64,000 bases of DNA from Alphaproteobacteria bacterium. Lineage in GTDB: Bacteria > Pseudomonadota > Alphaproteobacteria > UBA9219. The DNA is taken from contig JAQVBU010000011.1 in the NCBI GenBank assembly GCA_028690155.1, forward strand, positions 12,370-76,369, read 5' to 3'. Both the position numbers and the translations under genes were made by a program. Below are positions 60,145 to 64,000 of the stretch, piece by piece (position 1 is the first letter of the stretch; the number at the start of each line of letters is the position of its first letter). The notes beneath the pieces were generated by a model that worked only from the letters and a program-made list of their open reading frames with translations, did not search any database and was not told the DNA's origin.

Positions 60145-60220
60145 GCCTAGGTAGCTCAGTTGGTAGAGCAGGGGACTGAAAATCCCCGTGTCGGCGGTTC
60201 AATTCCGTCCCTAGGCACCA
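60145..60220 (+). tRNA. tRNA-Phe (GAA)
   Basis: 76-nt cloverleaf GCCTAGG...CCTAGGCACCA; anticodon loop CTGAAAA. Confidence 0.97.
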
Positions 60221-60287: not shown

Positions 60288-61136
60288 TTAAGAAGCAAGC
60301 CAGCGAATGGCATCGTTGGCATAGGCCGTTTTCATGGCGGCATGCAGGGCTGGAAAAAGCGTTTTAAGGGTCTCATCAAGCCCCCAAGGAGGGTTGATGA
60401 TGACAAGTCCGCTTCCGGCAAGATTATCCGTGCGGACGTTTTCATCATAAATGAATTCGGCACAAAGGATTTTGGGTATTCCGGAAGCGGCCAAGGCTTC
60501 ATGAAAAGCCCATATGGCCGGGCGGTTTTTGACAGGGTACCATGCCATATAAAGGCCCGACGGCCAGCGTTTATGCGCTTTGACAAGATGGTGGGTCAGG
60601 GTGTCGAATTCGTCTGCGTCTTCATAGGGCGGATCGATCAGGACAAGGCCGCGTTTTTCCGGCGGTGGCAAGAGCGCGTTTAACGCCTCATACCCGTCGC
60701 GGCGATGGACCTGAAAACGCGCATCCAGAGGCGCTTGGGTATGCAGATCCCGCGCCTCTTCGGGGTGCCGTTCGCAGGCGATTAGACGATCTTGAGCTCG
60801 AAGATGATGAAAAACGATAAAAGGCGATCCCGGATAAAGTCGAAAATTTTCCGGTTTTTCTTCGCTCCACGACGGATTGGCCCTTTGTAAAGCGCTATAA
60901 TACCCTTCCAGTCCGAGAAGAGGCGGCGCGTTCAAAAAAGTCCGGATACCGTTTTGGGCTTCATTCGTCTTTTGGGCGCGCGTGTCGTCGAGGGGGTAAA
61001 GCCCGGATCCCGCATGCGTATCGAGAACAGCGAATCCCTTGTTTTTATTCAATAAACTGGCGAGGATGCGGCACAAAACCGCATGTTTGACAACATCACA
61101 GATGTTCCCCGCATGGTAAATATGGCGGTAATTCAT
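60288..61136 (-). CDS. rlmJ: 23S rRNA m6A2030 methyltransferase RlmJ
   Basis: MNYRHIYHAGN..DVVKH, DTHAGSG, YPGSP, LIDPPYE, WYPVK, NPPW. Confidence 0.96.
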   Translation of the reverse strand: MNYRHIYHAGNICDVVKHAVLCRILASLLNKNKGFAVLDTHAGSGLYPLDDTRAQKTNEAQNGIRTFLNAPPLLGLEGYYSALQRANPSWSEEKPENFRLYPGSPFIVFHHLRAQDRLIACERHPEEARDLHTQAPLDARFQVHRRDGYEALNALLPPPEKRGLVLIDPPYEDADEFDTLTHHLVKAHKRWPSGLYMAWYPVKNRPAIWAFHEALAASGIPKILCAEFIYDENVRTDNLAGSGLVIINPPWGLDETLKTLFPALHAAMKTAYANDAIRWLAS

Positions 61137-61202
61137 GGCCGACGACACCCGAAATTCTAAAAACGGCGTTTTAAAAGTCAGGATATGATATACAAAGAAG
61201 AA

Positions 61203-61448
61203 TCAGGATTTGTTAATAAAATCGTAGCCACCATCTTCTAAACTTCTTAGCCCATGGTGGGACCCCTGGTGGGGTTGGAACCCGGCCTTTTTTTGAGGAT
61301 CAGAAAATAAGACAGCCAATTTGGCGATGTGCTCGATAGCCCCACGTTGAGAGAAAAGGCCAAAGTGTTGGGATCTTCCATGATGTTGGGGGTGAATGCC
61401 TGTTACTACTTTGGTAACAATAAACCTAAATGGAATATCGCTGGACAT
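61203..61448 (-). CDS. Short hypothetical ORF (may be spurious)
   Basis: 81 aa with no recognisable family, in a low-GC spacer. Confidence 0.3.
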   Translation of the reverse strand: MSSDIPFRFIVTKVVTGIHPQHHGRSQHFGLFSQRGAIEHIAKLAVLFSDPQKKAGFQPHQGSHHGLRSLEDGGYDFINKS

Positions 61449-61509: not shown

Positions 61510-62418
61510 ATGTCTATGAGAGAGAAGAAATCTATCGATCGTATTGAAGCCTTGATCCAAGAGGATGTCGGAAGAAATGTCATTCCGCTGTTTGAAGCAA
61601 CCAAGGGGAATTTGTATGCGGCGGCACAAGAAATTGCAGAAACAAAGACTCCGAAAATTGGGATTGTGACAGGTTTCTATGTTCCAGCAGGAAACCCTCC
61701 ATCAGCGGAAACCGATGGACCGTTGGGGGCAGTGGTTCTGTCCGCCGGCCTGAAAAAGGCAGCAGTTTCCTGCCGGATTCTGACTGATTCCTATTGTGCC
61801 GGAGCCTGTTTTGCAGCGATAAAAAAGACTGGGCATGATATTCCTTTAGATGTGGCGGATACAGACGATGATTTATCAAACGTCGAACAATTGTGGAAAA
61901 AAGAAGGCATAACTCATATCCTCTCCATTGAGCGTTGCGGGCAAAGTGCTGATGGTAAGCCCAGAAATATGAGGGGGAAGGACATTAGTGAATTTACGCC
62001 TGCGTTTGATAAATTGTTCCACTCAAAAAGTTGGAGAACCCTAGCAATTGGGGATGGTGGAAACGAAATAGGTATGGGAGCCATTGATTCAGCTATCATT
62101 GCTAGCTGTGTAGCACATGGTGATAAAATCGCGTGTAAAACACCTGCGGACTTTTTGATAACAGCAGGTGTTTCCAATTGGGGTGGCTATGCTCTTCTGG
62201 CATCTCTTGGTGTTTTGAGAAAAGAGTGGGGGCAAGGAGCATTGTCCGGGCTGAGTTCGCAGACACATGCTGAAATATTGGAAGCTATGGTTACGCAAGG
62301 ACCGTCAGTCGATGGAGTTACAGGTGAGCAGGTTTTGAGTGTGGACGGATTTGCTCTTGAACGGCACGAGAAGAAACTGGTTGCAGTGAAGAACATCGCA
62401 AGCATCCATCTTAGGTGA
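61510..62418 (+). CDS. DUF4392-domain protein (stand-alone homolog of the D-glutamate cyclase C-terminal domain)
   Basis: VTGF, ETDGPLG, IERCG, NMRGKDIS, IGDGGNEIGMG, GVSNWGGY, VDGV. Confidence 0.85.
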   Translation: MSMREKKSIDRIEALIQEDVGRNVIPLFEATKGNLYAAAQEIAETKTPKIGIVTGFYVPAGNPPSAETDGPLGAVVLSAGLKKAAVSCRILTDSYCAGACFAAIKKTGHDIPLDVADTDDDLSNVEQLWKKEGITHILSIERCGQSADGKPRNMRGKDISEFTPAFDKLFHSKSWRTLAIGDGGNEIGMGAIDSAIIASCVAHGDKIACKTPADFLITAGVSNWGGYALLASLGVLRKEWGQGALSGLSSQTHAEILEAMVTQGPSVDGVTGEQVLSVDGFALERHEKKLVAVKNIASIHLR

Positions 62419-62471: not shown

Positions 62472-63794
62472 ATGTGTTATGATGAGTTTCAATTTTTGCG
62501 ATATTCTTTTGACAAAAAAGAGGGCGTTCTTAATATGCACTATGCATATAAGGACGGCCCTTCTTTTGAGGAGAATGTGTCCTTTCCTAGGGCTGCTGTG
62601 GCCTTGGACCCGGGCAAACATGAAGCCTTGGAACAAGCCTTCAAGCTCATTTTCCTGTTGTCCGGGATAAGCTACTATAAACTCTACGTTCCTCGTCGAG
62701 TTGTTTGCCCGGCGTTCCCTCTTGATAAGCAAACAGCAGATTTTCTTAACAAGATTTATTATCATGGTCTTGGCGAATTTGCGTACAGAAATAATGTCTC
62801 TGTTTCCAAAGAGCTGTTTGTTTGCACACAAGATGCCCCCCATCATAAGGCCGTAAAGGTCGCATTGAAAGATAGATCGCTTGTGCCCGTCGGTGGAGGA
62901 AAAGATTCCATTGTTTCTGTGGAGACACTTAAGAGAAATGCAGAAGACCTCCTGCTTTTTGCCGTCGGAAATGTAAAAGGTGTTGCAGAGCCGATCAGGA
63001 AATCAATAGAAACTATGGGGCAACCTTCTGTTATTATCAAAAGGATCCTATCAGGAGAGCTAATCAAGCAGAATGAAAAAGGAGCATTAAACGGACATAT
63101 TCCAATTACGGCGATATTAAGCAGTATTGCCGTAGCCAGTGCGTTGTTGTTTGATTGTAACAAAGTAATCTTTTCCAATGAAAGTTCAGCAAATGAACCG
63201 ACCGTATTTTTAGGTGGGCAAGCCGTAAATCATCAGTATAGCAAGACCTTAGATTTTGAGACGGATTTCGCTGATTTTACTAAATATTATGTATCCCCCA
63301 GTGTGGAATATTTCTCTCTTCTCCGTCCGTTAACGGAGGCTGAGATAGCTCGTCGTTTTTCCGAGATGAAAAAATATCACAATGTGTTTAGGAGTTGTAA
63401 TGCGGCTTTTAAACAAAATAATTTTGAGAGAGGTAAAACATGGTGTTGTGATTGCCCTAAATGCAGGTTTGTTTTCTTGGCGTTGGCCCCGTTTATCAAA
63501 AAAGTGGAGCTAGTGGAAATTTTTGGACAAAATCTTCTCGATGATCCACGACAACTTGATGGTTTTAGGGCGCTTTGTCAGGAAGGTGTGGACAAACCTT
63601 TTGAATGTGTGGGAGAAAAAAAGGAGAGTGCGGTTCTCCTGAAAAGTTTGTCTGCGAATTCGGATTGGAAAGACGATTATATTGTCCGATCCCTTGTTCC
63701 AGATTTTCCTTTAGCGACAGAGAACTTAGCATCTTTTCTGGCACGCAGGGGACCACATCGTATGCCTTCTCGATATAGGAGAGGAGTATGCTAG
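62472..63794 (+). CDS. murL: MurL, UDP-MurNAc-L-Ala-L-Glu epimerase
   Basis: SYYK, YYHGLGEFAYRN, PP-loop-like VGGGKDS, NGHIPITAI, SNESSA, NHQYSK, FRSCN, WCCDCPKCRFVFL, KPFECVG; adjacent to a MurD-like gene. Confidence 0.85.
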   Translation: MCYDEFQFLRYSFDKKEGVLNMHYAYKDGPSFEENVSFPRAAVALDPGKHEALEQAFKLIFLLSGISYYKLYVPRRVVCPAFPLDKQTADFLNKIYYHGLGEFAYRNNVSVSKELFVCTQDAPHHKAVKVALKDRSLVPVGGGKDSIVSVETLKRNAEDLLLFAVGNVKGVAEPIRKSIETMGQPSVIIKRILSGELIKQNEKGALNGHIPITAILSSIAVASALLFDCNKVIFSNESSANEPTVFLGGQAVNHQYSKTLDFETDFADFTKYYVSPSVEYFSLLRPLTEAEIARRFSEMKKYHNVFRSCNAAFKQNNFERGKTWCCDCPKCRFVFLALAPFIKKVELVEIFGQNLLDDPRQLDGFRALCQEGVDKPFECVGEKKESAVLLKSLSANSDWKDDYIVRSLVPDFPLATENLASFLARRGPHRMPSRYRRGVC

Positions 63795-64000
63795 ATGTCT
63801 GCGAAGTTCCTTAGTAAAAAAGAAGTCGTCGTATGGGGAACGGGAAGAGAGGGGCAGTCGGCAGTATTGTTTATGAGAGAGATTGCTCCGGATGTGAGAC
63901 TTTGTTTTGTCGATGAAAAAGAGAATCTTGATCAAGAAATGCTTGAAGGTGTCCAAATAGTTACTGGAGACAGAATTAAAGAAAAAGTTCTAAACGCAGA
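63795..64000 (+). CDS. MurD2-like ligase, N-terminal fragment (runs off the window)
   Basis: Not in the ORF track. GAGGAG RBS, then ATG at 63795 abutting the murL stop; reads MSAKFLSKKEVVVWGTGREGQSAVLFM...FVDE, a Rossmann-like WGxGREG start as in MurD2. Confidence 0.7.
   Translation, partial: MSAKFLSKKEVVVWGTGREGQSAVLFMREIAPDVRLCFVDEKENLDQEMLEGVQIVTGDRIKEKVLNA

Follow-up and report, generated by a model that had tools for sequence, protein, structure and literature searches.

An alternative peptidoglycan pathway, in which the canonical enzymes of D-glutamate (D-Glu) supply and ligation are replaced by MurD2 and MurL, was reportedly described in Xanthomonas oryzae by Feng et al. in 2017. This MurD2/MurL route has been put forward as a target for narrow-spectrum antibiotics, on the premise that its hosts depend on it and are without genes for forming D-Glu. 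In X. oryzae the two proteins are XOO_1320 and XOO_1319 (reviewed in PMC8788868 and PMC5808125); the chemistry of MurL is reported to convert ATP to AMP (PMC5808125), and among Alphaproteobacteria the pathway has already been reported in Devosia, Pelagibacterium and Parvularcula (PMC8788868). Here we describe a murL-murD2 pair preceded by a gene of the DUF4392 family, lying at the end of a 64,000-nucleotide (nt) stretch of DNA from an alphaproteobacterium (the window; positions 12370-76369 of contig C1, which extends 2,479 nt further, so that features past position 64000 are given in "window-equivalent" coordinates obtained by reading on along C1). MraY homologues assign the genome to an uncultured alphaproteobacterial lineage. 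The genome (2.10 Mb in 43 contigs, 54.3% GC, estimated contamination 0.74%) also encodes the standard route, and the three genes are probably a laterally acquired module that would provide a spare, parallel route beside it.

Two described proteins bear on the DUF4392 gene. Mouse D-glutamate cyclase (DGLUCY) carries DUF4392 as its C-terminal and DUF1445 as its N-terminal domain; cyclase activity has been demonstrated just for this two-domain protein and has not been attributed to either domain singly (PMC5339696). The archaeal protein TON_0340 is a small-cavity enzyme in which six invariant acidic residues build a site for two Mn/Mg ions, and its only recorded activity is that of a weak phosphatase (PMC5132392). 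A further enzyme that recurs below, DgcA, is part of a pathway that salvages D-Glu to L-Glu (PMC10845958).

The murL gene occupies positions 62472-63794 of the forward strand and encodes 440 amino acids (aa). Its product matches the NCBIfam MurL profile NF041275 over nearly the full length (profile positions 9-439 of 447; 439.9 bits, E 8e-132), a score below a cut-off that is tuned to Xanthomonadales (440 versus 700 bits), and matches no second NCBIfam family at E<0.01. Its precomputed Pfam domains are MurL_N and MurL_epimerase_C, and an alignment over 432 aa shows 42% identity with the annotated Xanthomonas sacchari MurL. All 88 columns that are invariant in an alignment of 35 sequences are retained, the GGGKDS PP-loop and the WCCxCPKCRF cysteine cluster among them, as are 93% of those that reach 90% conservation or more in the other sequences; the invariant stretches include G141-S146, N207-H209, N253-K258 and W324-F333. 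An earlier reading made from the letters alone (the sequence-only reading) had recognised a full MurL motif set here, and these data bear it out. That reading had also raised the possibility that the protein groups with other PP-loop enzymes. A sequence search against the PDB returned no related solved structure; the top PDB fold matches of an AlphaFold model (predicted local distance difference test score, pLDDT, 90.3; predicted template modelling score, pTM, 0.92) are QatC/QueC, carbapenam and beta-lactam synthetases, TtuA and NAD synthetase, all of them PP-loop ATP pyrophosphatases that adenylate their substrates. The predicted fold is thus that of a PP-loop enzyme, consistent with the ATP-to-AMP chemistry reported for MurL, and the family to which the sequence assigns the protein is MurL. 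Many MurL homologues are labelled "endonuclease domain-containing protein" or "hypothetical" in the databases.

The murD2 gene begins at the base after the murL stop codon and is preceded by the Shine-Dalgarno sequence AGGAGAGGAG. Just its 5' part, which begins MSAKFLSKKEVVVWGTGREG, lies within the window (63795-64000, forward strand); reading on along C1 gave the rest of the gene, as well as the boundary of the region discussed below. What the sequence-only reading had seen as a MurD-like start proves to be a complete 436-aa ligase of the MurD family (window-equivalent 63795-65105; TIGR01087, 302 bits against a cut-off of 212) with the domains MurD-like_N, Mur_ligase_M and Mur_ligase_C, and the concern that the downstream open reading frame (ORF) might not encode a Mur ligase is thereby answered. 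All 30 columns that are invariant across 35 MurD and MurD2 sequences are present. The protein is 38-46% identical to the ligases that adjoin MurL in relatives, 23-28% identical to ordinary MurDs and 26% identical to the host's own MurD from the division and cell-wall (dcw) cluster. A phylogeny, which the sequence-only reading had suggested as a check, places it within a clade of 14 MurL-adjacent ligases (Shimodaira-Hasegawa-like approximate likelihood-ratio test, SH-aLRT, 99), on a long branch whose position inside the clade is weakly placed.

Mutagenesis of X. oryzae MurD2 has shown that Glu197 and Arg358, the counterparts of Asp182 and Lys348 in Escherichia coli MurD, set specificity for L- versus D-Glu, with Pro433 and Phe435 nearby (PMC8788868). 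At the four corresponding positions the protein described here has Glu186 (PEH), Arg343 (DRG), Pro414 and Tyr416; the MurD2 of X. sacchari resembles it, and the dcw MurD of the host has Asp (PDH), Lys (DKG), Ala and Phe. The Glu/Arg pair is found in 12 of 13 MurL-adjacent ligases. The exception, L030:9425-10717 (genome G025), has Cys and Val (PCH, DVG) with Ala in place of Pro, which makes its substrate preference unpredictable. Together these data support the view that the two genes are a MurL/MurD2-type pair. If they are expressed, MurD2 would by homology ligate L-glutamate onto UDP-N-acetylmuramyl-L-alanine (UDP-MurNAc-L-Ala), and MurL would adenylate the terminal alpha-carboxylate of the product through its PP-loop domain and release the D-epimer. 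The MurD2 of X. sacchari (L224:4804-6240, NZ_CP010410.1) is called "UDP-N-acetylmuramoyl-L-alanine--D-glutamate ligase" by the NCBI pipeline, and TIGR01087 scores MurD2 above its own cut-off; with the labels given to MurL, this looks like a systematic mis-annotation of the pathway.

The sequence-only reading proposed that the pair had been acquired to replace MurI and MurD, and recommended a search of the genome for murI, dat and canonical murD. That search returned an intact murI (C27:75546-76286; 210 bits against a cut-off of 147) with the motifs DSGVGG, ACNTAS and GCTHFP, in which both catalytic cysteine motifs are intact, and a canonical murD (C32:15522-16781; 299-307 bits) within a murE-murF-mraY-murD-ftsW dcw cluster; dat, for D-amino-acid aminotransferase, was not found in the host genome. 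Replacement is refuted by the presence of these two genes. For the same reason the module is best regarded as a spare, parallel route. The alternative that the sequence-only reading had offered, a second pathway for a modified wall, survives only in its first half, as redundancy: both routes would yield one product, and there is no sign of a modified wall. Nor is the host racemase-independent, in the sense of having no murI, no dat and no D-Glu-specific MurD: dat alone is absent.

Elsewhere the two routes scarcely ever meet. MurL was found in 15 of 60 relatives, and murI in none of those 15; relatives that carry murI are without MurL. Each of the 15 has a single MurD-type ligase, which adjoins murL in 14 (in the fifteenth, G017, whose assembly is fragmented and 85% complete, the ligase is found on a different contig). 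Four species of the host's genus have the arrangement murE-murF-mraY-X-murL-murD2-ftsW, in which the pair takes the slot of murD. Of 401 genomes sampled evenly across the class, 21 have MurL, and among these the present host alone carries murI (0 of the 20 others), and murI was found in one of 34 further MurL-positive genomes. Both routes therefore occur together in 2 of about 69 MurL-positive genomes: coexistence is rare, not unique. The second case, Pseudomarimonas arenosa CAU 1598 (L134, NZ_JACYTR010000016.1; genome G482), is a cultured member of the Lysobacterales with murL-murD2 and a murI that scores above the cut-off (207 bits), and is a tractable organism for studying coexistence of the routes. 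The host state may be a snapshot of the intermediate by which sister species exchanged murI and murD for murL-murD2.

The dcw MurD of the host is itself unusual. Together with those of 12 relatives (L032-L043) it makes up a clade that very long branches (3.3 + 2.8 substitutions per site) part from the ordinary type of alphaproteobacterial MurD found in sister genera of the family, and the motifs of this clade differ (PDHMNYYDGD, GGADKGLP); the murD slot is accordingly filled by three types of ligase within the family. The relatives are distant ones, identity to their dcw MurD being no higher than 67%. Many relatives (G008, G027, G031, G038, G044 and others, some of them an estimated 98-100% complete) have MurD without either murI or murL.

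Composition sets the three genes apart from the genome around them. They lie in a block of 3,959 nt (the island; window-equivalent 61303-65261, C1:73672-77630) with a GC content of 43.4%, which places it among the 0.3% of equal-sized windows of the host genome that are poorest in GC. By gene, GC is 46.6% for DUF4392, 42.1% for murL and 41.5% for murD2, and GC at third codon positions (GC3) is 0.40, 0.38 and 0.36, respectively, compared to 0.54-0.72 in rlmJ, pleD, murI and the dcw murD. The low GC of the block that the sequence-only reading had reported is thus confirmed, as is its position just beyond tRNA-Phe and rlmJ; the baseline of about 70% against which it was set is wrong, mean GC being 52.5% in the window and just 2.3% of 60-nt lines reaching 68%. 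In 13 of 13 relatives the GC of murL-murD2 differs from that of its flanks by -0.02 to +0.04; at the island the difference is -0.10. Several other stretches of the host genome are equally AT-rich (42.7-43.8% GC): C32:197000-206000, C27:29500-31500, C22:123500-130500 and C23:126500-127500. The first of these contains, at C32:198463-198897, a weak match to the Asp/Glu-racemase superfamily (35 bits to the murI model).

Close relatives of the island are scarce. In a collection of 5.8 billion proteins the closest homologues of the three proteins are 52-57% identical, and no other contig carrying island proteins was found there; a single-protein search of GTDB genomes, from which MurL loci were gathered by alignment-based search, likewise returned no close relatives. 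Among plasmid records MurL has four matches, at no more than 42% identity, which are uninformative as to the donor. All three proteins stand on long terminal branches, and the fraction of the residues Phe, Tyr, Met, Ile, Asn and Lys (FYMINK) is 0.28-0.29 in them versus 0.21-0.24 in homologues, which suggests that the branches are partly compositional, residues favoured by AT-rich DNA being enriched. Two potential sources found no support. An origin from the dcw-borne murL-murD2 of the host's own genus is at odds with identities of only 47-53% (MurL) and 38-46% (MurD2), with the foreign GC and with the long branches; for the four-gene cluster of Stellaceae and Acetobacteraceae described below, identities are 44-50% (MurL) and 36-41% (MurD2), and the island DUF4392 falls outside both linked clades.

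The borders of the island are equally informative. On its left lies a direct repeat of 378 nt (60925-61302, C1:73294-73671) comprising codons 1-75 of rlmJ and the region upstream of that gene. On its right, an IS3-family insertion sequence (IS) of 1,249 nt (C1:77631-78848 continued at C23:158-188; NF033516, rve/HTH_Tnp_1) begins 156 nt past murD2; its terminal inverted repeats are TGACGTTCTCCCC, each of its ends is present in one copy only in the assembly, and there is no target-site duplication at the element. Directly after its end comes the second copy of the repeat, a truncated rlmJ' of 363 nt (C23:189-551), followed on C23 by a gene with a peptidoglycan-binding domain, pilin-like genes and dxs. 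The first 308 nt of the two repeat copies are 100% identical; then follow two mismatches and indels of 12 and 3 nt. The layout is therefore rlmJ, repeat, DUF4392-murL-murD2, IS3, repeat (truncated rlmJ'), next native gene. Searched against plasmids, the IS3 DNA has just distant matches within the IS3 family (64-69%); a 374-nt fragment of the element, 99.5% identical, lies inside contig C40 (C40:13170-13543).

The block has the features by which genomic islands are recognised: composition that deviates from the genome, a gene for mobility at its border and direct repeats on both sides. Foreign composition together with a mobile element at the border makes lateral acquisition of the block, for which the sequence-only reading had argued, well supported by the sequence. 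The native genes on the left are tRNA-Phe (anticodon GAA; 60145-60220, forward strand, ARAGORN) and rlmJ, for a 23S rRNA methyltransferase (60288-61148, reverse strand; PF04378, E 1.7e-58; GC3 0.54). The tRNA gene was considered as an insertion site and rejected, because its end lies 705 nt short of the left repeat with rlmJ intervening, and because the repeat derives from rlmJ and not tRNA sequence. The long direct repeats of host sequence around the insert instead point to a Campbell-like single crossover: a circle of about 5.6 kb, consisting of the IS, a homologous segment and the module, would have integrated into the upstream region of rlmJ. The flanking repeats suggest that such an integration was recent.

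Within the island the three ORFs are co-oriented and spaced as in an operon, with 53 nt between DUF4392 and murL. A scan of the unit for sigma-70 promoters found sites no commoner than in shuffled sequence. The gap between rlmJ and DUF4392 holds an 81-aa ORF on the minus strand (61203-61448), which is probably spurious, and a terminator-like hairpin (61272-61290; GGGGTTGGAACCCGGCC, then a run of T) at the end of the left repeat.

The unit opens with DUF4392 (61510-62418, forward strand), which encodes a stand-alone GLUCM-like_C protein of 302 aa (PF14336, E 3.4e-69). It aligns to the structures of TON_0340 (PDB 4FC5/4DWZ) with E 1.5e-22 and keeps the six acidic metal ligands of that protein; the metal-binding motifs ETDGP, E(R/T)xG, GDGGNEIGMG and VDG align, and SIE is also conserved in the alignment to 4FC5. 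We know of no activity established for bacterial members of the family. Its most probable role is that of a metal-dependent enzyme acting on D-glutamate, whether to cyclise or to clear it. No DUF1445 remnant was detected upstream of the gene, even at E values up to 100, and in a tree the protein falls outside both MurL-linked DUF4392 clades.

To see what accompanies MurL in other bacteria, we examined the neighbourhoods of the best 80 MurL loci in species-representative genomes. A co-oriented MurD2-type ligase adjoins murL in 70, and contig ends interrupt most of the others. Of the 80, 35 loci, from Stellaceae, Acetobacteraceae and other Alphaproteobacteria, have the pair as the second half of a co-oriented DUF1445-DUF4392-murL-murD2 cluster, and the two nearest homologues of the island DUF4392 that are on long contigs lie in such clusters. 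None of 25 genomes tested with the four-gene cluster contains murI. A very distant, high-GC metagenome-assembled genome (L131) has DUF4392 about 1 kb upstream of murL-murD2. The MurL, MurD2 and DUF4392 of the island do not group with the clades of the four-gene clusters; given the separate positions of the island, the clusters and L131, the neighbourhood seems to have originated, or been retained, in three or more separate lineages.

In the relatives of the host a different gene stands in this place. A DgcA-type gene (NF042940; 447.7 bits, cut-off 400) is directly upstream of murL in 5 of 13, where a gene for a DgcA-type N-acetyl-D-Glu racemase lies between mraY and murL in the dcw cluster of several species of the host's genus (L021:6901-7935 in genome G020, and L022, L024, L025 and L028). 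A D-Glu salvage enzyme inside a division and cell-wall cluster is unusual. Since the position upstream of murL is taken by either a DgcA-like gene or DUF4392, two unrelated D-glutamate-handling enzymes share one slot, and in the literature searched we found no described link between MurL and DUF4392. It is possible, although we lean slightly against it, that organisms using MurD2 and MurL, being unable to reuse free D-Glu, couple the pathway to an enzyme of D-Glu salvage or clearance. Bacteria of this kind carry no racemase and would not use free D-Glu, and on these grounds we tentatively propose, while thinking it the less probable outcome, that the route has an unrecognised third component directly upstream of murL, namely DUF4392 with or without DUF1445 or else a DgcA-type N-acyl-D-Glu racemase, and that the island is a portable form of it caught in a transient two-pathway state. 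On the reading that we favour, the island DUF4392 probably belongs with the pathway in the way that DUF1445 plus DUF4392, or DgcA-like genes, do in other bacteria using MurL.

A number of observations weigh against the island being an intact acquired route with a D-Glu-handling partner. The terminal branches of MurL (1.15; median 0.24) and MurD2 (1.45; median 0.32) are long, and MurD2 matches at only 83% of the columns with a conservation of 90% or more, where other MurD2s average 96%, so that relaxed constraint is possible. The orfB of the adjoining IS3 is split by an extra frameshift into pieces of 172 and 124 aa, and the element is for this reason probably no longer mobile. DUF1445, the partner present in other clusters, was not found elsewhere in the host genome, and DUF4392 occurs without MurL in 10 genomes of the class sample and in G011, of the same genus as the host. 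Between rlmJ and the island the assembled path passes through the 308-nt exact repeat, and the two halves of IS3, at the end of C1 and the start of C23, overlap with 3 mismatches in 157 nt. Much of this is what would be expected of a recent neutral passenger, still intact through its youth alone, redundant, under relaxed constraint and heading to loss, with no role in the host: the canonical murI/murD route is complete, MurD2 departs from the conserved columns more than any other member of its clade, both routes are seldom retained together and the neighbouring IS3 is degraded. Decay, however, has left no mark on the reading frames, all three of which are full length and free of stops. MurL has lost none of its 88 invariant columns and few of the highly conserved ones (93% kept), MurD2 retains every column invariant across the 35 MurD and MurD2 sequences together with the determinants of L-Glu specificity, and much of the branch length is compositional, as FYMINK indicates, which fits a long stay in an AT-rich donor better than decay. 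We consider a neutral passenger unlikely.

The join through a perfect repeat and the mismatched overlap inside the IS could also mean that the linkage of island to genome is artefactual, or confined to a sub-population: the unit, IS and repeat would close as a circle of about 5.6 kb, and such a circle, or the DNA of another strain, might have been joined to rlmJ across the repeat in an assembly of 43 contigs, a view with which the foreign GC agrees. Against this, the assembly runs through each copy of the repeat into unique sequence at either side (rlmJ to island on C1; IS to rlmJ' to the peptidoglycan-binding gene on C23), which would be abnormal for an assembler without read pairs, and the mismatches and indels near their island-proximal ends make the copies distinguishable. 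The single copy of each IS end fits one integrated element, a partial copy of the same IS lies inside the native contig C40, and estimated contamination is low; an artefact of this kind is in our judgement distinctly improbable. The module might, lastly, serve some purpose other than peptidoglycan, such as D-glutamate detoxification or catabolism centred on DUF4392, or the synthesis of another glycopeptide containing D-Glu. The host has no need of the module to make its wall, DUF4392 members exist without MurL, and the family is without an assigned physiological substrate, TON_0340 being a weak phosphatase only. But no conserved residue is missing from MurD2 or MurL, whose characterised counterparts have the UDP-MurNAc dipeptide as their sole known substrate, and in relatives the pair fills the murD slot of the dcw cluster as the sole MurD-type ligase; to a role outside the wall we give hardly any credence. 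An acquired module that would act as a spare route beside murI and the dcw murD accounts for the data best.

The MurD2/MurL pathway itself is known, in Alphaproteobacteria included. What is new is a redundant and mobile copy of it, the recurrence of DUF4392, usually with DUF1445, upstream of murL, and the DgcA-like gene in the same position in relatives. That the route can apparently travel as a small mobile module into a genome with the standard route bears on how essential pathways are replaced, and on resistance to, or bypass of, inhibitors aimed at such a target. Because the two routes are otherwise strictly alternative in the host's alphaproteobacterial family, the host genome would be a rare natural intermediate. 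The recurrent D-glutamate-cyclase-like and DgcA-like genes upstream of murL provide a testable hypothesis for a widespread family conserved from archaea to humans. Were a third component to prove real, it would give bacterial DUF4392 and DUF1445 proteins their first physiological context, and the host would represent a natural intermediate of non-orthologous displacement in an essential pathway.

Compared to the X. oryzae pathway, the island has the same adjacent pair in the same order, murL then murD2, with the Glu/Arg specificity pair, Pro and an aromatic residue in MurD2 and a predicted PP-loop fold in MurL. It differs in that published hosts have no D-Glu-forming gene, whereas the present host has murI and canonical murD, and in that the pair, known here from sequence, is carried on an IS-bounded, low-GC island with a DUF4392 gene in front.

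Nearer to hand, the murL-murD2 pairs of the host's genus and family (G001-G029) share protein families, gene order and specificity residues with the island, whose copies fall, weakly placed, within their clades. In those relatives, in contrast, the pair has host-like GC and supplies the sole MurD-type ligase; in at least four species it lies in the dcw cluster between mraY and ftsW, behind a DgcA-like gene, and murI is absent. The clusters of the Stellaceae/Acetobacteraceae type (L060, L061, L063-L104) resemble the island in having a co-oriented DUF4392, 45-54% identical to that of the island, directly upstream of murL-murD2, but they include DUF1445 (PF07286) and belong to high-GC genomes of 4.5-7.8 Mb without murI. 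With DGLUCY (PMC5339696) and TON_0340 (PMC5132392), finally, the first protein of the island shares its DUF4392 family and the acidic two-Mn/Mg motifs; where DGLUCY is a fusion of DUF1445 and DUF4392, the island protein is a stand-alone bacterial DUF4392.

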